Shown here: positions 425-27,808 of the stretch, piece after piece | Position numbering within the stretch: position 1 is the first letter of the stretch | Layout: every line of letters starts with the position of its first letter | Source of the DNA: a bacterium | GTDB taxonomy: Bacteria > Bacillota > DTU030 > DUMP01 | DNA: 64,000 nucleotides | Direction: 5' to 3' | Assembly (NCBI GenBank): GCA_050951365.1 | Contig: JBMNIX010000011.1 | Location: forward strand, 8,845-72,844 | Notes under the pieces: generated by a model | Told to the model about the DNA's origin: nothing | Database searches by the model: none | The model's input: the letters and a program-made list of their open reading frames with translations, nothing else | Program-made: the position numbers and the translations under genes

Positions 425-2278
425 ATGGGCAACGGGTACTGGGGCAAGGTCTTACGCGTAAACCTGACCGACCGCACCTTTCGGGAAGAACCAGTGGGTG
501 AGGACGTTTGGCGCAGGCTCCTGGGTGGGGCTGGCTACGGGGCCAAGGTGCTGCTCGAGGAGACACCGGCCAAGGTGGACCCGCTGGGACCGGAGAACAA
601 GATCATCTTCGGCATCGGCTGCCTGCAGAGCGTCCCGGCGCCGGGGAGCGCCAAGTGGAGCGTGGTCACCAAGTCACCCTTAACCCGCACGTACCTGGAT
701 TCCGCCGGGGCGGGCACCTAGGCGCCCATCTTCAAGCGCACCGGGTACGACTCGCTCGTCATCGAAGGCAAGGCCAGCGAACCGCTCTACCTCTACATTA
801 CCGACGGCAGGGTGGAGTTCCGCCCCGCCGGGCACCTCTGGGGCAAGACAACCGGCGAAACCACCGGCACCTTAAAGGATGAACTAGGCAAGAACGCCAG
901 TGTGCTCAGTATCGGTCCGGCCGGTGAGCGCCTGGTTCCCATCGCCTGCATCGCCTCCGACGGCATCAGCTTCGCCGGTCGCGGCGGTGCCGGCGCCGTA
1001 ATGGGCTCGAAGAACCTCAAGGCCATCGCCGCCTATGGGACCCAGGAGTGCCCCGTGGCCGACCGCGAAACGGCCTACCGGCTCAGCCGGGAAATGATGA
1101 GGGAACTGGCCGAGCGCGGCGCCGGCTTCAGCGAGAACGGTACACCCGCCGTTATCGTACCGTTTGAGGAGATGGGCGACACCCCCATCAAATACTGGAC
1201 GGGGGACGTGTGGCACGAGGGCGCGCGCCTGCTGGGGACGCCGCACTATAACGAGGTCCTAAACACGAAACCGCTGCACTGTCTGCACTGCCCGGTGGGC
1301 TGCCACCGCCGCGTGCGGGTGGACGGTCCGCCGGAGTTCGCCATGGAGGGTAACGGCCCGGAGTACGAGACCATCGCCATGTTAGGCTCCAACCTCCTCA
1401 TCGACGACTTGGCCCCCGTCACCAAGGCCAACGAGCTCTGCAACATGCTGGGGATCGACACCATCTCGGCCGGCGCCTGGATCGGTTTCCTGATGGAGTG
1501 CTACGAGAAGGGGCTCCTCACCGACGCCGAGCTGGGCGGCCCGGTGCGTTGGGGCGACGGCCACCGGATGGTGGAGCTCGTCGAGCAGATCGCCCGGGGT
1601 GAAGGCGTGAGCCGCTTCTTTAAGGAAGGCATTGTGGGCGCAGCGAAAATGGTCGGGAAAGGCGCCGAAGAGCTCATCGTCCACGTGAAGAACCTGGACT
1701 TCCCCGCCCACGACCCGCGCGCCGTTTTCGGCCTGGGCGTGAACTACGCCACCTGCCCCATCGGCGCCTCCCACGAGCGCGGCGACCCGCAGGCCACCGC
1801 CCTGGGCCTCTGCTACCCCGAGCTCGGCTGGGATGAACCGCCGGAGCGCTTCGACATCGACCGCGCCGCCGAGGTGGCTTACGTCATCACCAATGCCAGC
1901 CTGATGTACAACTCCCTGACGTTCTGTAAGTTCATCGTCAAAGGCGCCGGGATGACCCTTACCGAGCTCATCGACATCTTTAACGCCGTGACGGGCTGGA
2001 ACTGGACCCCGGCCGAGCTGGCCGACGTAGGTAAACGGGTCATTACGGTGCAGCGTCTCGTCAACGTGCGCGACGGCATCGGCCGCAAGGACGACGTGCT
2101 CCCGCCTAAGATGTACATCACGGCCAAGGAAGGCGGCCGCGTGGGCAAGACCCCGGCCACAGAGCACGAGCGCGTCCTCTCCGAGTACTACGCCCGGCGC
2201 GGCTGGGACGAAAACGGCGTGCCCACGCGCGAAACGGTGGAGAAACTGGCGTTGGGCGAGCTCCTTAAGTACGTGTAG
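425..2278 (+). pseudogene. aor: tungsten-type aldehyde:ferredoxin oxidoreductase (AOR family), reading frame interrupted by one in-frame TAG at 719-721
   Basis: ORF-track pieces 377..721 and 812..2278 are in the same frame. Read-through gives a continuous AOR N-domain (MGNGYWGKVLRVNLTDR...KSPLTRTYLDSAGAGT*APIFKRTGYDSLVIEGKASEPLYLYI...) followed by the catalytic domains. RBS GGAAGGAGG precedes ATG 425. Confidence 0.85.
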
Positions 2279-2341
2279 CAGGTAAGGGGCGCGCTGCGGC
2301 GCGCCCCTGGCGCGGACAGTGCCCCGCAGGGAGTGAAGAGT

Positions 2342-2575
2342 ATGCAAGTTAGGGTTAAGCCTGTTTCTTACTTAAAAAAATACCTGCCGGAAGGCGAAAA
2401 GGTTATGGTCAAGGAGCTGACCGCACCGGTTACGGTGGCCGAACTGCTCGCGCTCTGCGGCTTTCCGGAAGAACTCCAGCCCCTCGTTACAGTGAACGGC
2501 CACCGCAAAAAGCTGGACTACCGGGTGGCTGATGGCGACGAGATCCTCATCGCGCCGCCGGCAGCCGGCGGTTGA
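2342..2575 (+). CDS. MoaD/ThiS-family ubiquitin-like sulfur-carrier protein (C-terminal Gly-Gly)
   Basis: 77 aa ending ...DGDEILIAPPAAGG-stop. Size and the GG terminus are typical of MoaD/ThiS. RBS GGGAGTGA lies before ATG 2342, immediately downstream of AOR. Confidence 0.7.
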   Translation: MQVRVKPVSYLKKYLPEGEKVMVKELTAPVTVAELLALCGFPEELQPLVTVNGHRKKLDYRVADGDEILIAPPAAGG

Positions 2576-2674
2576 AGGGGTAGTGCGCGGGGAAAGAAGG
2601 CGGTGCCGTGGAAGTCGCCGCCCAGCGCGTCACACTGCCCCCGGCTCATTCCACCTGCCGTATCTGGGCGGGGC

Positions 2675-5347: not shown

Positions 5348-6757
5348 TTAGAAACTCTGCGTTATAATAAAGTCTATCAGTTTTTCAGTTTCCCGCCAGG
5401 TAAAACCTGGAATACTTGGCGATAATCCGGACTGCCGCGCAGCAGCAACGTCACCAAATACAGCCACGAGCCTTCCCGTCATACGGGTAATAGGTTCGGA
5501 AACGCCACGACGAAAAACGGCAATCTTGGGAAAGGGACCGCTCTTCAGTCCCTCCAGCAAGACAATATCTAGCGGACCGAACCAGTCTCGTAGCCGCTCG
5601 ACTGCAGCTTCCGCCCCAAGCTCATAAAACAAGGTGGCCCGCTTGGGCGTGAGCAGAGCTGCCGCTTCGGCCCCCGCCTGAGCAAAGCGCCAGGTGTCTT
5701 TGCCAGCAGTATCCGTCTCAACATCTTCGTGAGTGTGTTTCACAGCAGCTACCTTCACCCCGCGGCGAACTAGCCCTTGAATTAGCTCCATAAGGAGGGT
5801 GGTTTTCCCACTACCCGAGGTACCTACAAAGCTGATAACGGTCGGGGAGGGCCGCTGCGCCGCCGCCCCGTCATTAGCTGTCTTACCTGTCTGGCCTAGC
5901 GGCAGGGAATGCATCTGGCCACTGGCAGAGTCTATATAGAAAAGGCGGCACCGTAAGGGTTCTCCCACCCCAGTCAAGATCTTGATCACCTCCTGTACCT
6001 CTAAGGAGGCAACTAAGGCGGCAGTAGCAGCCAGGTTGCCTGTTTCCACCTCAATGCCACGCTCGCGGCCGGTGACGGAACCATAAATCTCTGCCAGCCC
6101 TGGATCACCAGGAAAAATGGTTAGTACTTGACCTAGGAAACCAGCAATTGCACCATGTACAAGGGGAATGTTTGATGCCCGTGCTGCTGCTTCTAAAGCA
6201 AAACGGGCGGGCAGGTTATCTAAGGCATCTACCACAAGGTCTGCACCCTGCAGCAAGGCTCTGGCGTTCTCAGGAGTCAACCGTTCCTGGAAGTAGGTCA
6301 CCTCTGTGGCCGGATTAATGGCCCAGACCCGTTCTCGTGCTACCTCTACCTTAGGCCGGCCCAGGTCCGCCTCCCGGGCAAGTATCTGCCGGTTAAGATT
6401 ATTGTCGCTGAAAACGTCGTTATCTATCAGGATGAGTCTCCCCACTCCCATGCGAGCCAGAAGCTCCACCACAAGCCCACCCAACCCACCGCAGCCTACC
6501 ACCGCCACCGTTGCACGAACCAGACACAGCTGCCCCTCTTTGCCAATAGTACCGATATTCCTCAGGTAGCGGCCAGGTACTATGCCCCCTTCTAAGGCAA
6601 TAAGTTCTACCTCCCTCCGAGATACGTCACAAGTACGCGCAATCTCGCCACAGGCTGTGAGCGAGAGAACCCGCTCTGTCTTCTTGCCCACCTGCGCCGG
6701 TTCCGCCGCCTCCTGAACCATATTCTTGATGGCTTGAGCCTTGGCCGCCGCATCCAT
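5348..6757 (-). CDS. ThiF/MoeB-type E1-like adenylyltransferase fused to a C-terminal MobB-like P-loop domain
   Basis: The Rossmann motif VAVVGCGGLGGLVVELLARMGVGRLILIDND and NLNRQ are ThiF/MoeB hallmarks. The C-terminal VISFVGTSGSGKTTLLMELIQGLVRRGVKVAAVKHTHED matches the MobB Walker A region. ATG 6757 has RBS AAGGAAGGTGA; the TTG at 6790 is a less likely start. Confidence 0.75.
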   Translation of the reverse strand: MDAAAKAQAIKNMVQEAAEPAQVGKKTERVLSLTACGEIARTCDVSRREVELIALEGGIVPGRYLRNIGTIGKEGQLCLVRATVAVVGCGGLGGLVVELLARMGVGRLILIDNDVFSDNNLNRQILAREADLGRPKVEVARERVWAINPATEVTYFQERLTPENARALLQGADLVVDALDNLPARFALEAAARASNIPLVHGAIAGFLGQVLTIFPGDPGLAEIYGSVTGRERGIEVETGNLAATAALVASLEVQEVIKILTGVGEPLRCRLFYIDSASGQMHSLPLGQTGKTANDGAAAQRPSPTVISFVGTSGSGKTTLLMELIQGLVRRGVKVAAVKHTHEDVETDTAGKDTWRFAQAGAEAAALLTPKRATLFYELGAEAAVERLRDWFGPLDIVLLEGLKSGPFPKIAVFRRGVSEPITRMTGRLVAVFGDVAAARQSGLSPSIPGFTWRETEKLIDFIITQSF

Positions 6758-6998
6758 TTTATTCACCTTCCTTGCTTCGTTTTTCGCCAACTACCCAGGT
6801 AAACCCTGCTAACCAAGAACACACTTTACTAGAACTTTTGTTCCCTTTATGAACTTTATGTACTTAATGCCCCAGCTGCCTGATAGGGCAGGTATTTCTC
6901 ACCTGAATGTAGAACTTAATATATATTATGGTCACACAATTCACTCTTATAGTACAAGGGGCCCTTTAGTTAATTTCTAGACGGGGAGGACGAGGTAT

Positions 6999-7721
6999 AT
7001 GCAAGTCAAGGAGGAACTCTGTGTCGGTTGCGGCCGCTGTGTGCTCTACTGTCCGGTTCAGGCTATCAGTCTCAGCGCAGACAGGAAACTGGCCGTTATT
7101 GACCAGGATGAGTGTGTCGAGTGCGGCGCCTGCCTCAGGAGTCCTGCATGCAAGACTGGTGCCCTTTATCAGCCAGAGCTAACCTGGCCCCGTGCTGTCC
7201 GCAGTCTTTTGAGCGATCCCCTTACTATCGCTCCTGAAAGCGGCATTAGCGGTCGCGGTACGGAAGAAATGAAGACCAACGATGTTACTGCGCGCTTCAA
7301 GCGCGGCTATGCTGGAGTAGCCGTGGAGGTGGGTCGGCCCCTCCTGGGCGCGCGCCTTAGGGATGTAGAAAAAGTGGCACAAGCCATCGCACGTTTTGGT
7401 GTTGAATTTGAAAAGATTAACCCCACCACCAGCCTTATGGCAGATCCCAAGACAGGCAAGTTCAAGGACGATCTCCTAGACGAAAAGGTGCTCTCGGCCA
7501 TTATTGAGTTTGCAGTGCCTATCGAGAAGCTACCTGACGTTCTTTACACTCTGGAACGAGTCTCCCACGAGATAGACACCATCTTTACTGTGGATGTATG
7601 CTCGCGCTGCAATCCAGACGGCTCCATTCCCCATGAGGAACTCCTGGCCCGCGGTAACTGGTGGTATTCCATTAACGTCAAGACCAACGTGGGCTTGGGC
7701 CGACCCCTAGCAGCAGAGTAG
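6999..7721 (+). CDS. 2x[4Fe-4S] ferredoxin domain fused to an uncharacterised ~170-aa domain (module copy 1, subunit A)
   Basis: Cys motifs CVGCGRCVLYCP and CVECGACLRSPAC, followed by a conserved domain (GRGTEEMKTNDVT, FGVEFE, KVLSAIIEF, KTNVGLGRP). A paralog lies at 24717..25427. RBS GGGGAGGACGAGG precedes the ATG. Confidence 0.8.
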   Translation: MQVKEELCVGCGRCVLYCPVQAISLSADRKLAVIDQDECVECGACLRSPACKTGALYQPELTWPRAVRSLLSDPLTIAPESGISGRGTEEMKTNDVTARFKRGYAGVAVEVGRPLLGARLRDVEKVAQAIARFGVEFEKINPTTSLMADPKTGKFKDDLLDEKVLSAIIEFAVPIEKLPDVLYTLERVSHEIDTIFTVDVCSRCNPDGSIPHEELLARGNWWYSINVKTNVGLGRPLAAE

Positions 7722-7754
7722 CAGGGAAATAAGCTAGGCTGAGGAGGTAACGAA

Positions 7755-8384
7755 ATGACACATACGCTGCACCGCATCGGCAGCTATAACGACTTGACCG
7801 AGGATTACGTGTTTCTCATGATGCCGTCCAAAGGGATCAACGTAGAAGGATCCGGTGAAAAACTGCGCACCTTTTTGGAAATGGCCTTGAGGCATAATCC
7901 GGTCATTATCGGTGACGCCCGCAAAGGCAACGCCTACCACCAGGGTGGCATTGACAACCTGCTGGCCAATATTGAAGATCAAGCAGTAGTGCAAGCGGTG
8001 TTTGACAATAAGGAAACGGTTGTTACCCTACTTAAAGAACTGAAAGAAGCTGACCTGGGCATGTCAGTGGTGGTTTCTGGCATCGCCACTGAGGTGCACG
8101 AGGCATGTAGGCAGGCGGGATTGGAGCGCCACACCGTAGAACACTCCCTGGGCCGCTGGGGCCGCACCGACAAACTACCGCCGCGGCAAATTCTGGAAAT
8201 AACCAACATGTGTGGACACTCCATGGTCCCGGCCCAACTGGTCTACAACATGCTGGCTGACATAAGAACAGGGCGCAGAACAGCCGAAAATGCGGCAGGA
8301 GAGCTGGCTAAGCCCTGTATGTGCGGTATCTTTAATACAAAACGGGCAGCCCGGCTCTTGGCTGCACTGGCAGAAGCTTTCTAG
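7755..8384 (+). CDS. uncharacterised Cys-containing protein, N-terminus MTHTLHR (module copy 1, subunit B)
   Basis: 209 aa, 33 nt after subunit A, with RBS GAGGAGG. Blocks shared with paralog 25440..26063: MTHTLHR, GSGEKL, HNPV.IGD, VVSG, EIT.MCGH, GRRTAE.A..ELA..C.CGIFN.KRA. I recognise no characterised family. Confidence 0.8.
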   Translation: MTHTLHRIGSYNDLTEDYVFLMMPSKGINVEGSGEKLRTFLEMALRHNPVIIGDARKGNAYHQGGIDNLLANIEDQAVVQAVFDNKETVVTLLKELKEADLGMSVVVSGIATEVHEACRQAGLERHTVEHSLGRWGRTDKLPPRQILEITNMCGHSMVPAQLVYNMLADIRTGRRTAENAAGELAKPCMCGIFNTKRAARLLAALAEAF

Positions 8385-15217: not shown

Positions 15218-15991
15218 CTAGCCTTTAATAAAATCCTCTATGAACTCAACAATGCGTTCTAGTGCAGTATCGTTTATCTTCTTACCTTTCTCAGGACTGG
15301 CTGCACGGGCATCACCCATAGCCCCGTTGTTGGTAAGGTCTTTCCAGCGGTAAGGGTAACCCACACGGAATTGTCCGTACAGATCTGTATACTTGAAGGG
15401 ATAGGCACCCTCTCCACCCTTACTTAAAGCATCCGGCCGCACCAATTCGGGTGCCAAGAACCAAGCGTCCGAAACCTCCCATTCGCCTGAGTGTTCGATT
15501 CTGCCTGAGGTAACAACCTCCTTGGTCACATCAGCGGTCATTACCTTGTAATTAACATAGGGCACCCTCAAGCCAAACTGGGCTCGGATAGCCTCGACAG
15601 CCACTGCCAAAGTACCCTCGTTACCACCATGGGCGTTGATAATAAGGAAACGCTGGAACCCATGCTGCCGCAAACTGGCCACATAATCAACAATGGTGTC
15701 CACCAAGGTTTGCGGCCTCAAGGTGATAGTGCCGGGGAAATCAAGATGGTGCGGGGAAATCCCCACCGGAATACCCGGTGCAACAAGCACACGGGGATAA
15801 AGGGCGCGAGCTACGCGCAGGGAGAACTTGTAAGCACGCGTAGCATCAGTCGCCAGGCAAAGATGTGGCCCGTGTTGCTCAGTTGATCCCACCGGGATTA
15901 TCACCAGCTGTACCTTGTCTTTGCGCTCCTCGATTTCCATCCAGGTAAGATCGCCAATGGCGACGCGCTTTTCCGTCTCGGCCTCTGGCAT
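15218..15991 (-). CDS. creatininase (creatinine amidohydrolase) family protein
   Basis: VIIPVGSTEQHGPHL and FLIINAHGGN motifs; 257 aa. Confidence 0.8.
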   Translation of the reverse strand: MPEAETEKRVAIGDLTWMEIEERKDKVQLVIIPVGSTEQHGPHLCLATDATRAYKFSLRVARALYPRVLVAPGIPVGISPHHLDFPGTITLRPQTLVDTIVDYVASLRQHGFQRFLIINAHGGNEGTLAVAVEAIRAQFGLRVPYVNYKVMTADVTKEVVTSGRIEHSGEWEVSDAWFLAPELVRPDALSKGGEGAYPFKYTDLYGQFRVGYPYRWKDLTNNGAMGDARAASPEKGKKINDTALERIVEFIEDFIKG

Positions 15992-16040
15992 GTCTTTACC
16001 CCCTTTTTTTGCCGCTTACTGCTGTATCCTCGATCTTAGA

Positions 16041-16816
16041 CTAGACGTTCTTTACAAAGTCCCGGATAAAGACACCAAGGCGTTCGACCACTTTGTCGAC
16101 GATCTCTTTGCCCAACTCTTTACTTGTTCCCTCCGGATTGCCAAAGGCCCCATTATCGGTAATCTCATGGGTGTACCAGGGATAGTCCACTTTCCACATA
16201 TCGTGGCGCGAACCAATCATTGTGTAGGGCCAGTGCTCATCGCCCTTCTCCAACCGATCCATGTGAACAAGATCCTCGTCCAGGTATAGCGCCACGGCCA
16301 AACCTGGATCAGAGCCGTGTCCGCGCTTTTCTACCGGGATCTTGGCTGCAACATCGCGCACGAGATCAATGTAGAGGGTGTGGGCCACCTCAACTCCCTA
16401 GCTTCTCCTTTGAGCTCCATGGCCACCACGTTGCAGGCGTGGCGGTTGCCGCCATGGGTGTCAATGAGGAGGAACTTCTTAAAGCCGAAACGATGCATAC
16501 TGGTGACTATATCCTCAATAACAGCCATAAAGGTGGATTGTCTTAAAGTCACTGTACCGGGGAAACGCATGTGGTGGTAAGAAACACCCATCATTACCGG
16601 CGGGGTCACCACCGCCAGCGGGTGTACCTCCTTGGCAACCAGTTTCGCCATGTCGTACGCCTGCTGCCCATCCACCTTGAGCTTAATTCCAGGACCGTGC
16701 TGCTCATTGGAACCCACCGGAATGATGGCCAGCTTAGCAACTTTATACGCTTCCTCTGCTTCCTTCCAGGTCATCTCAGGAAGTAGATAAATACCATCTA
16801 CCTGCATTTTTTTCAC
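16041..16816 (-). pseudogene. creatininase-family paralog split by a frameshift near 16385-16395
   Basis: ORF 16331..16816 carries the N-half (AIIPVGSNEQHGPG, FLLIDTHGGN). ORF 16041..16388 carries the C-half (...DPGLAVALYLDEDLVHM..., ITDNGAFGNPEG...). Together they equal one ~255-aa creatininase like its neighbour. Confidence 0.7.
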
Positions 16817-24716: not shown

Positions 24717-25427
24717 ATGTTAGTTGATGAAACAAAATGTGTGGCCTGTGGTAATTGTATTGATTACTGCCCTATGAATGCCATCTCTTTGACCGCAGAG
24801 TGTGCCGCTGTGGATCAAGCAGAGTGCGTGGAATGTGGCGTCTGCCTTCGCTCGGAGTGCTGCCCCACCGGAGCCCTCTACCGTCCAGAGCTTAACTACC
24901 CGCGGGACATCGCCTGCTTCTTCTCGGACCCAGAGGCTACACACCCCTCTACTGATGTGCCTGGACGTGGCACGGAAGAGATGAAAACTAACGAGGTAAC
25001 TGGACGCTTCCCGCCTGGCATGGCCGCGATCGCAATTGAACTGGGGCGACCTGGCATTGGAACGCGCTTCACTGATGTGGAAAAGGTAGCACGCGCCATG
25101 GCTGAGTTCGGCGTGGAGTTCGAGCCACAAAACCCCGTCACCGCTCTCATGATAGACAAGCGAGCAGGTACACTCCCTGATGATCTAAAGCCTGTTAAGG
25201 TTCTCTCGGCCATTGTTGAGTTTGGTGCACCACTGGAAAAGGTGCCAGCCATTCTTCAGCGTCTGAAAGAGGTAGAAGGAGAACTGGAAACCGTTTTTAG
25301 CCTGGATCTGGCTGCCCGTGTTCCGGAGGATGGTTCTCTCCCCTTTGCGGGGCTAGAACTCCCCTACCCGCTTTCCATCAACGGCAAGACCAACGTCGGC
25401 CTGGGTAAACCACGCTTTCGGGAGTAG
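24717..25427 (+). CDS. 2x[4Fe-4S] ferredoxin domain fused to an uncharacterised domain (module copy 2, subunit A)
   Basis: CVACGNCIDYCP and CVECGVCLRSECC, then GRGTEEMKTNEVT, FGVEFE, KVLSAIVEF, KTNVGLGKP. Collinear paralog of 6999..7721. Confidence 0.8.
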   Translation: MLVDETKCVACGNCIDYCPMNAISLTAECAAVDQAECVECGVCLRSECCPTGALYRPELNYPRDIACFFSDPEATHPSTDVPGRGTEEMKTNEVTGRFPPGMAAIAIELGRPGIGTRFTDVEKVARAMAEFGVEFEPQNPVTALMIDKRAGTLPDDLKPVKVLSAIVEFGAPLEKVPAILQRLKEVEGELETVFSLDLAARVPEDGSLPFAGLELPYPLSINGKTNVGLGKPRFRE

Positions 25428-25439
25428 GAGGTTACAGCC

Positions 25440-26063
25440 ATGACACACACACTACACCGTCAAGGGACTGCAGAAAACCTTGCCCATGACTTTTGCGTCC
25501 TGGCCATTTCCGCTCAAGGGATCAACAGCGCCGGTTCAGGCGAAAAGCTGCAGGCAATAAAAGAAATCTTTTTAAAGCACAACCCTGTAAACATCGGTGA
25601 CATTAAGCGCGGCAATATGTACAACCCTAGCACGGAGCACGTAATGGCCGCAACCCAAGACGGTACCGTGGTTCATGCCGTCTACCGTGACCGGGAGACC
25701 TTGATTGCAGTGCTGCGAGACTTAAAAGACGCCGACACCGGCATCTCCATTGTCGTCTCGGGACTTTTCGATCACGTAGGAGAATGTTGCCAGCAGGCGG
25801 GACTAAAACCCCACACCATTGAGTACTCACTAGGGGTTCACGGTGCCGTGGAGCGCCTGCCGGAGCGAAGCATTACTGAAATAACCACCATGTGCGGCCA
25901 CGGGCAGGTCTCCTTTAACCTAGTCCGGCGGATGGTACGAGAAATCGAAGCTGGCCGGAGAACAGCTGAGGACGCCGGAAAAGAACTCGCCCGCCAGTGC
26001 ATCTGCGGTATCTTTAACCCGAAGCGGGCGGAAGAACTACTACTGAAACTAGCTTCAAAGTAA
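25440..26063 (+). CDS. uncharacterised Cys-containing MTHTLHR protein (module copy 2, subunit B)
   Basis: 207 aa, 12 nt after subunit A. Collinear paralog of 7755..8384, with conserved EITTMCGH and CICGIFNPKRA. Confidence 0.8.
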   Translation: MTHTLHRQGTAENLAHDFCVLAISAQGINSAGSGEKLQAIKEIFLKHNPVNIGDIKRGNMYNPSTEHVMAATQDGTVVHAVYRDRETLIAVLRDLKDADTGISIVVSGLFDHVGECCQQAGLKPHTIEYSLGVHGAVERLPERSITEITTMCGHGQVSFNLVRRMVREIEAGRRTAEDAGKELARQCICGIFNPKRAEELLLKLASK

Positions 26064-27106: not shown

Positions 27107-27166
27107 TAAAAAAAGAGGATCCCGGCTACGTTGTGCTGCAAGGCACTCGCAGTCGGGATTTTTTTA
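27107..27166. terminator. bidirectional terminator between the ADH gene and the C_GCAxxG gene
   Basis: An A7 tract, then an imperfect hairpin ATCCCGGCT...AGTCGGGAT, then a T7 tract. Confidence 0.55.
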
Positions 27167-27613
27167 CGCCAGCAGCTTGGTTACTAGCACCGCCGCCGTC
27201 TCAACAAAACGCTGACACTTGATCCGGCGCTCGGGGTCGTCCTTGAATCTCTTCTCGCCCTCCGGGCTGCGCAGGTCATAGCCGGTAAGTTCCCGGCAGA
27301 GAAGTTTCCCGTGCTCCCCTTGAAAGCCAGCAATGAATTCCCTCATCTTGCTGCGTACACGGTCGTAGGCTTCCTTGTCCCCGGCCTGTTCACGTCCACC
27401 CCACAAGCCTACCAAGAGTGCAGCTCCGCTGATAACACCGCAGACCTCGCCTTGGCCGCCCACCCCACCGCCAAAAGATGTGGCCAGGGCTGAAGGTAGG
27501 TCTAACCCCATTTGCAGTGCCTCCCGGGCACCTAAGAAAACTGCTTCAGCTCAACTGTATCCGGCTATGAAATAGTCAGCTGCCACCTCTCTGGCCTGTT
27601 GACTTGGCTCCAT
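27164..27613 (-). CDS. C_GCAxxG_C_C-family putative redox protein with in-frame TGA (codon 21) at the first conserved Cys position: candidate selenoprotein
   Basis: ATG 27613 (RBS GAGGAGG) gives MEPSQQAREVAADYFIAGYS-TGA-AEAVFLGAREALQMGLDLP..., in frame with ORF 27164..27511. That ORF carries GEVCGVISGA, LLCRELTG and IKCQRF. The family consensus here is GYNCAQAV. Confidence 0.6.
27516..27532 (-). other. candidate bacterial SECIS hairpin
   Basis: On the mRNA strand, GGUGCC-CGGGA-GGCACU forms 6 bp with a G-containing loop. It starts 18 nt after UGA (27553..27551). Confidence 0.4.
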
Positions 27614-27808
27614 ACTGCTGCCTCCTCAATTTTTAATAAAATTAACCTTCAATTCTGCGCCCAAAGTGGATTCTCCTACCTTGTCTAGGAATTATCCTTT
27701 TTAATGTTACATTTTTTTCTTAGGAAGAAAGCGCTCGTCTTTCCTATAGTTTATGCTCAAAAAAACTCAGCCGGTGGGAAAAATACTAGCAGGAGGTGCA
27801 CAGCAAAA

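Follow-up and report, generated by a model that had tools for sequence, protein, structure and literature searches.

A C_GCAxxG_C_C family gene with an in-frame UGA at the first conserved cysteine: a probable selenoprotein of an uncultured spore-forming Bacillota lineage, annotated in shortened form

Introduction

The C_GCAxxG_C_C family (PF09719) has been listed among bacterial selenoproteins since Zhang and Gladyshev (2007) described a 'Putative redox protein' with three selenocysteine (Sec) genes and a predicted Sec insertion sequence (SECIS) element in the Olavius delta1 symbiont (PMC1976440). A 2022 review contains the entry 'C-GCAxxG-C-C family protein, pfam09719, WP_012158890.1' (PMC9312934), and a 2026 review recognises two forms of the PF09719 family, distinguished by the position or the motif of the Sec (PMC13188914): form 1 corresponds to the Olavius protein just mentioned and form 2 to WP_012158890.1 (Zhang and Gladyshev 2008). 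The listing of the family as selenoproteins rests on computational evidence (PMC9312934, PMC13188914, PMC1976440), and the product name of the NCBIfam model TIGR01909 is 'C-GCAxxG-C-C family (seleno)protein'. Here, we describe a gene of this family with an in-frame UGA codon, located on the minus strand of a 64,000-nucleotide (nt) stretch of DNA from a bacterium of the Bacillota (assembly GCA_050951365.1, contig JBMNIX010000011.1, positions 8,845 to 72,844). This whole stretch is hereafter referred to as the window, and all coordinates are given with respect to it.

The gene agrees well with the described family. It encodes a full-length domain of about 150 amino acids (aa) that scores above both curated cutoffs and has the four conserved positions, and it shares with the known (seleno)proteins the Sec/Cys pairing, the abundant Cys homologs, a hairpin resembling the bacterial SECIS (bSECIS) 3' of the UGA and a presumed redox role. 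It is very probably an additional member of a recognised selenoprotein family, so that its description is a re-annotation rather than a discovery, and it opens no new question, the selenoproteins of this family having been published since 2007. In the accessible text of the 2026 review, the replaced Cys is not stated for either form (the motif column is given as '-'), and the window gene is therefore not assignable to form 1 or form 2. It differs from the known forms in that, together with one ortholog, it appears to constitute a small separate group from uncultured spore-forming Bacillota, closest to Cys forms. It would add a separate Firmicute lineage, with its own placement of the SECIS, to a family whose selenoproteins were first recognised in a symbiotic deltaproteobacterium.

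Gene structure and family membership

We consider it likely that the region 27613..27164 is a monocistronic gene for a 149-residue C_GCAxxG_C_C protein, in which the UGA at codon 21 is decoded as Sec in place of the first conserved Cys (Table 1). This reading is based on the sequence features, the family, the alignment of the UGA with Cys, the conservation of the UGA, purifying selection across the UGA and the association of a SECIS-like hairpin with the UGA forms. The frame passes through 20 codons (MEPSQQAREVAADYFIAGYS), the TGA and 13 further codons (AEAVFLGAREALQ) to an internal ATG (27511..27509), and then continues to the TAA stop. In two contigs of the same species (L002 and L016), the sequence at the Shine-Dalgarno (SD) position is AAGGAGG. 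Another SD-like sequence, GGGAGG (27525..27520), is found inside the hairpin described below, 8 nt 5' of the internal ATG. The hairpin of the intrinsic terminator that follows the stop codon has a folding energy of -22.1 kcal/mol (z = -3.1; equally good folding in 1 of 200 shuffles), and this strong terminator argues for a compact single-gene unit. The terminator probably also serves the convergent Zn-ADH gene, because A/T runs are present on both of its sides. For this gene, the mechanical list of open reading frames (ORFs) contains only a 115-aa ORF (27164..27511). Its product is named 'probable redox protein' (115 residues) in JGI/IMG, and an equally short product was called in Logan and ENA.

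Table 1. Features of the C_GCAxxG_C_C family gene and its surroundings (window coordinates).
Feature	Coordinates	Strand	Remarks
Full coding sequence, C_GCAxxG_C_C (seleno)protein	27164..27613	-	149 codons including one in-frame UGA; stop TAA at 27166..27164; from sequence and translation
Shine-Dalgarno GAGGAGG	27621..27627	-	7-nt spacer to the ATG at 27613
Start codon ATG	27611..27613	-	Opens the 149-codon frame
In-frame UGA, codon 21, proposed Sec codon	27551..27553	-	At the first conserved Cys of the family; from alignment with Cys homologs
Alternative hairpin, 13 bp, G-U rich, 3-nt loop UGC	27514..27544	-	RNAalifold consensus; excludes the hairpin 27516..27532
Proposed bacterial SECIS core, 6-bp stem GGUGCC/GGCACU, loop CGGGA	27516..27532	-	-7.9 kcal/mol
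Internal ATG, codon 35	27509..27511	-	Start picked by gene callers for the 115-aa product
Second conserved Cys, C58, GEVCG motif (GEVCGVISG)	27440..27442	-	Invariant alignment column
Third conserved Cys, C106, LCRELTG motif	27296..27298	-	Invariant alignment column
Fourth conserved Cys, C133	27215..27217	-	Invariant alignment column
Intrinsic terminator, long hairpin and U-run	27108..27159	-	Directly 3' of the stop codon

With Cys substituted for the UGA in the computation of profile scores, the protein matched PF09719 (E = 3e-24; 85.8 bits, the cutoff being 27; positions 1-117 of the 118 in the profile) and TIGR01909 (71.9 bits against a cutoff of 47.4, positions 1-118 of 120). The four positions that define the family (C ... 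G-C-[AG]-x-x-G ... C ... C) correspond to U21, C58, C106 and C133 in the 149 aa, and alignments of 9 and 46 members showed each of these columns to be either invariant or conserved in no less than 90%, the first of them being occupied here by the UGA. In the alignments, the UGA was located opposite the first conserved Cys of the Cys homologs (GYNCAQAV, GHNCAQSV, GCNCAEAV), and this column contained Cys at 12 of 13 genome loci (the 13th match stops short) and in 37 of 38 other aligned Cys-form homologs. The 13 loci were obtained by scanning a genome collection with a profile of the TGA subgroup; all were at most 42% identical, and the 12 reaching the site had TGC or TGT. An exhaustive search of 1.84 billion representatives revealed that the subgroup of the window gene is tiny, with its own cluster alone at E <= 1e-30, and the next relatives were Cys forms with 45-49% identity. 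In a neighbour-joining tree, which concerns a short protein and has no support values, the window gene and its ortholog on another contig (L001, see below) appear as a separate TGA group with Cys forms as nearest relatives; at least three TGA groups appear nested among the Cys forms.

The N-terminal part of the HUGP/GUXX-star fusion selenoprotein (NF045501) is homologous to the window protein (E = 5e-17, profile positions 8-146 of 236). However, the score of 62.2 bits is far below the 325-bit cutoff of that model, and the window protein, which ends in ...TKLLA, lacks the C-terminal extension and a second UGA, so it is not a member. The name of the model suggests that the Sec of NF045501 lies in an H-U-G-P motif, which would resemble GYH-U-AP in a distant TGA form (L019) and GYS-U-AE in the window gene.

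A reading of this DNA made beforehand from its letters (the sequence-only reading) had proposed the gene as a candidate selenoprotein. It had noted the 115-aa ORF as the only one in the ORF track, as is the case, and the frame that it described, opened by the ATG at 27613 behind GAGGAGG and running through the TGA at 27553..27551, was recovered when the minus strand was read. The alignment with Cys homologs confirmed its placement of the TGA at the first redox Cys of the family, and the remaining family Cys residues that it had listed are indeed present, as C58, C106 and C133.

Conservation and translation of the UGA codon

The same TGA was found in L002 and L016, which are near-identical contigs from other samples, and the 90% cluster of the 115-aa product comprises five sequence variants, which come from JGI, Logan and ENA contigs and were all called from the internal Met. 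The TGA is thus present in independent assemblies, and an error of sequencing does not explain it. An ortholog with 58% identity, L001, is encoded on an unrelated contig of 97 kb and has kept the TGA together with the frame and the N-terminal motif; it reads …EYFSRGYS-TGA-AESVFLGAREAL… around the TGA; the motif common to both genes is YF..GYS-U-AE.VFLGAREAL, and the internal ATG of the window gene is replaced with TTG in L001. In the comparison of these two genes, codons 22-34 had a proportion of nonsynonymous differences (pN) of 0.108 and a proportion of synonymous differences (pS) of 0.794, which is saturated (pN/pS of about 0.14), and the remaining part of the gene had a pN of 0.257 and a pS of 0.759. 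The 13 codons that separate the TGA from the internal ATG include no in-frame ATG, GTG or TTG, so that codons 22-34 are translatable only by readthrough of the UGA, and, as judged from the comparison with L001, these codons are under strong purifying selection.

Many distant members of the family are unusually short, and several of them start a few residues past the position of the first Cys. In all six short homologs with retrievable DNA (L018-L023), a TGA was located exactly at the first-Cys position, in the motifs GFN-U-AES, GYH-U-APS, GYT-U-AES, HLN-U-AQV, HLN-U-AQT and GYS-U-SES. A scan of metagenomes with the degenerate DNA pattern G-Y-x-UGA-A-[EQ]-x-V-F-L-G yielded one contig of the same species and one chance match. 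The practical value of these observations lies in annotation: the gene would encode a 149-residue selenoprotein, as opposed to the annotated 115-residue product without the first helix and a probable key residue, and the same shortening affects many family members in metagenomes, with a TGA at the first Cys in six of the six retrievable cases.

A genome-wide reassignment of UGA was also considered and rejected, as 8 of the 50 window genes terminate in TGA and these 50 ORFs are uninterrupted when TGA is taken as a stop codon.

A SECIS-like hairpin downstream of the UGA

Counted from the UGA, the stem of the proposed SECIS core begins at a distance of 18 nt and the loop at 24 nt. Published bSECIS constraints are a loop of 3-9 nt, a stem of 4-16 bp, a G in the first two loop positions, a spacing of 16-37 nt and a minimum free energy of -7.5 kcal/mol or lower (PMC13188914, Fig. 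2A), and the window hairpin lies within them, with a 5-nt loop, a G at position 2, 6 bp, 24 nt and -7.9 kcal/mol. In L001, five of the six pairs are identical and the sixth changes from U-A to C-G, a compensatory change brought about by two synonymous third-position substitutions; the hairpin is thus kept in L001 despite the saturation of synonymous sites elsewhere in the comparison.

An uninterrupted stem of 5-9 bp is present at all eight TGA-form loci, with a 3-5-nt loop that starts 17-24 nt past the UGA and has a G at its first or second position; the loop sequences are CGGGA, CGGGA, GGA, AGUUA, GGUCA, CGUGA, CGUGA and CGUGC. The loop of the window hairpin (CGGGA) is 24 nt from the UGA, whereas those of the other retrieved TGA forms are at 17-21 nt. 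When a comparable hairpin was defined as having at least 5 bp, an energy of -4 kcal/mol or lower, a G at loop position 1 or 2 and a loop 17-24 nt after the codon, it was present in 8 of 8 TGA forms and 1 of 12 Cys forms (Fisher p = 7e-5, a value that is indicative only, because the loci are not phylogenetically independent and the thresholds were chosen by us). Rfam yielded nothing relevant, either at the gathering threshold on the window or in a permissive scan of the gene.

As in bacterial SECIS/SelB recoding (E. coli fdhF; consensus of Zhang and Gladyshev 2005), the hairpin is located within the coding sequence just 3' of the UGA. Set against the consensus bSECIS, it has a small apical loop with a G at position 2 followed by a second G. 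It differs from the fdhF element in that it has no sequence similarity to it and a stem much shorter than the 40-nt fdhF structure, and binding by SelB is, for the window hairpin, a prediction.

An RNAalifold consensus gave a different fold, the 13-bp hairpin of Table 1. Both folds pair in 100% of the cells (window, L001 and L002), and 165 of 500 shuffles were as good, three sequences giving such a test no power. Nothing corresponding to the 13-bp fold was seen in the TGA forms further removed, and it is less likely to be a functional element; the 6-bp hairpin is preferred because the six distant TGA forms all share a short stem with a small G-containing loop.

The hairpin GGUGCC-CGGGA-GGCACU had been picked out in the sequence-only reading, 18 nt past the UGA, with G residues in the loop and at a spacing expected of a bacterial SECIS, and this description stands, as the hairpin lies within the published constraints. 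That reading had also named close relatives with TGC or TGT and no conserved hairpin as an observation that would speak against it, and the opposite was found, as the close relatives keep both the TGA and the hairpin. Other UGA-containing orthologs, for which it had proposed a search, exist in L001, L002, L016 and L018-L023. All of the comparative evidence gathered here supports its proposal of a selenoprotein with a UGA for the first Cys and a SECIS-like hairpin, except that the novelty of the selenoprotein family, which it had implied, does not hold: the family has been listed since 2007 and is named in TIGR01909.

As a mechanism, ordinary recoding of UGA to Sec as known from bacteria has the best support. 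Translation would begin at the ATG at 27613, directed by the SD sequence GAGGAGG, and, with the ribosome at the UGA, the hairpin 27532..27516 would serve as a bacterial SECIS, recruiting SelB-GTP-Sec-tRNA(Sec). Sec would then be inserted at residue 21, instead of termination after 20 residues. The finished product of 149 residues would contain Sec together with C58, C106 and C133 at the four conserved positions, and the Sec may act as a ligand or as the redox residue of a small electron-transfer partner. We infer that decoding is SelB-dependent, that Sec machinery is present in this genome and that residue 21 has a metal-ligand or redox role. The position of the Sec points to the first Cys as a functionally critical residue of the family.

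Alternative explanations

The existing annotations would be correct if the real gene were the 115-aa ORF (27511..27164) translated from the internal ATG, with the upstream 20-codon frame and the TGA lying outside the protein or forming a short leader peptide. The gene callers in JGI, Logan and ENA annotate this form, the SD-like GGGAGG lies 8 nt 5' of its ATG, and L001 offers a TTG with the same GGGAGG. Nevertheless, such a protein would be without the first conserved Cys and the first helix of the family, and the 13 codons from the TGA to the ATG, with a pN of 0.108 against a pS of 0.794 and no start codon, must be translated in frame. The 20 upstream codons, moreover, hold the N-terminal motif of the family (YF..GY.) and align with the Cys homologs, the internal start is not conserved as ATG, the GGGAGG is accounted for by the conserved codons R-E-A, and the six distant TGA forms have the same architecture with different downstream starts. 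We therefore regard a gene limited to the 115-aa ORF as improbable. The TGA could also reflect a pseudogene or an assembly error, a Cys codon (TGC or TGT) having mutated to TGA in a dead or dying gene. The change involves one base, two other genes of the same metagenome-assembled genome (MAG) are disrupted (AFOR by an in-frame TAG where a Trp is conserved, and a creatininase by a frameshift), and Sec machinery was not seen in the window and about 7 kb of added sequence. However, the TGA recurs in assemblies made independently from several samples and in an ortholog with saturated synonymous sites, over which time a nonsense mutation would not last with the whole frame under purifying selection, and the SECIS-like hairpin co-occurs specifically with the TGA forms. 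On these sequence comparisons the pseudogene explanation is largely refuted, and we consider it highly improbable.

Hairpins 3' of stop codons can stimulate readthrough, and the UGA might be read without Sec, by a near-cognate tRNA-Trp or tRNA-Cys or in a programmed manner, with Trp or Cys at position 21 and the hairpin as the stimulating element. The selection data demand full-length translation and are silent on the amino acid inserted, and no Sec machinery was seen in the window and about 7 kb of added sequence. This explanation is, however, unlikely in our view: the codon replaces a Cys conserved in the family, a classic Sec/Cys pair; the hairpins of eight lineages fit the bSECIS model, with a G within the first two positions of the loop and 16-37 nt of spacing; the family is listed independently as a selenoprotein, with SECIS predictions, in Sec-utilising organisms; and a split peroxiredoxin gene, typical of Sec-using genomes, adjoins one related locus. 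The decoding of the UGA as Sec thus remains the reading that we favour, and the following observations weigh against it. Neither selA, selB, selD nor tRNA-Sec was found in the 64-kb window and about 7 kb beyond its start (Pfam searches of about 50 ORFs, and tRNA scans), and scans for in-frame TGA codons and Pfam scans gave no other selenoprotein genes in the window or the added 7 kb. Other genes of the same MAG are disrupted, so pseudogenes do occur there. The GGGAGG in front of the internal ATG makes some production of a 115-aa form without the first Cys/Sec possible, and the conserved R-E-A codons also account for that sequence. The folding energy of the hairpin is unremarkable on the window sequence alone (z of -0.1 to -0.9 relative to shuffles); being indistinguishable from shuffles, it was dropped as evidence by itself. 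The hairpin, at -7.9 kcal/mol, is only narrowly below the limit of -7.5, and the competing 13-bp fold fits the three close sequences equally well. For the metal-ligand role, the evidence consists of a single fold match (TM 0.59), weak similarity at the sequence level (E = 0.03-0.3) and what is reported of the iron centre in 1H21.

Predicted fold, possible function and gene context

The structural model of a 42%-identical Cys form (P0008), used as a proxy for the window protein, was all-helical (pLDDT 95.7). Foldseek with this model returned split-Soret cytochrome c (1H21) as the sole credible match in the PDB (probability 1.00, TMq 0.59). The sole PDB match at the sequence level was also 1H21, with weak E values of 0.034 and 0.33 covering the Cys motifs; the match with E = 0.034 spans the first two Cys motifs, and the GGI..G.ICGA motif and a later Cys are aligned. 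This cytochrome is the only solved structure that resembles the family, in the part with a 'novel iron centre', and the homology is remote. The iron centre is reportedly bound by four Cys, and the aligned Cys residues of 1H21 are presumably iron ligands. In contrast to 1H21, a dihaem cytochrome of 247 residues, the window protein is a stand-alone domain of 149 aa without CXXCH; it did not match the split-Soret model NF047622, and L001 reached 18.8 bits against the 400-bit cutoff. Our suggestion, made with modest confidence, is that a non-haem iron or Fe-S centre is ligated by the four conserved positions, or that these otherwise make up a redox-active cluster of Cys and Sec.

Judging from the neighbouring genes, alcohol/aldehyde oxidoreductases may be the partner enzymes. 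A Zn-ADH gene is convergent with the window gene, and AFOR, SDR and Fe-ADH genes flank the L001 ortholog. In Desulfococcus biacutus, an acetone-induced C_GCAxxG_C_C protein is encoded near a Zn-dehydrogenase (PMC4103992).

More speculatively, the Cys/Sec switch at this position of the family may have arisen or been lost repeatedly, the window lineage being an independent event with its own SECIS geometry, and the conserved positions may bind a non-haem iron or Fe-S centre, in which case the Sec forms would be natural selenolate-ligated iron or Fe-S proteins. Taken jointly, these proposals are tentative, and we would sooner expect at least one of them to fail than all of them to hold. If they were true, the family would provide a natural series on how selenium affects a metal centre, the protein being small, soluble and associated with alcohol/aldehyde oxidoreductases.

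Other TGA forms are found in other surroundings. In a TGA subgroup represented by L019, L021 and two further places, a gene for a metallo-beta-lactamase-fold protein follows the C_GCAxxG_C_C gene in three of four cases, and genes for an HTH-cupin regulator and/or a Nitro_FeMo-Co (dinitrogenase cofactor-binding-like) protein are close by in three of four. This neighbourhood is unlike the ADH/AFOR context of the window gene and L001. In JGI 3300075153, an AhpC-TSA peroxiredoxin is encoded as two adjacent pieces (83 and 150 aa) 5' of another short C_GCAxxG_C_C gene. The organism in question probably uses Sec, because a split peroxiredoxin is the usual signature of a Sec-containing peroxiredoxin.

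Other features of the window

The window contains SASP, SipL and YabG genes, as expected for a spore former. The C_GCAxxG_C_C gene makes it likely that this uncultured spore-forming lineage of Bacillota, the habitat of which is probably anaerobic digesters, uses Sec.

Two further genes of the window are interrupted. The AFOR gene (approximately 425..2278, plus strand) has an in-frame TAG (719..721) at a Trp conserved in the AFOR of L001 (GGHWG), and the remainder appears undamaged; in JGI's assembly of this contig, the AFOR is likewise split, into 98 and 488 aa. A nonsense change from TGG to TAG is the likeliest explanation. Pyrrolysine at this codon was judged unlikely, TAG being the commonest stop codon of the window (30 of 50 genes). 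A second copy of the creatininase gene (15995..16816, minus strand) is frameshifted and is located directly 5' of an intact copy (15218..15991); its ORF 16331..16816 accounts for positions 2-128 of the 238 in the profile, with the C-terminal half in another frame.

A recurring gene pair encodes a 4Fe-4S ferredoxin-domain protein of about 236-240 aa and, after it, a protein without a Pfam match (about 205-209 aa). Copies are located at 6999..8384 and 24717..26063, both on the plus strand, and a third lies past the window start (14058..15395 of L024, the JGI assembly), adjoining AFOR. These pairs may be electron-transfer subunits for AFOR-type enzymes. A ThiS-like gene (77 aa, weak PF02597 match) is found just 3' of AFOR (2279..2674 in the window, 11057..11290 in L024), and a ThiF-MobB fusion gene is located near AFOR (5348..6790, minus strand); together, they suggest a sulfur-transfer set for a pterin or tungsten cofactor beside AFOR.

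The records of this organism are not identical, which indicates strain-level or assembly differences between them. In the JGI assembly, an IS21-type element (transposase and IstB; 17489..19740 of L024) interrupts a DctP gene just past the window start, and the TctA gene encodes 322 aa (2084..3052 of L024), as compared with 507 aa in the window.

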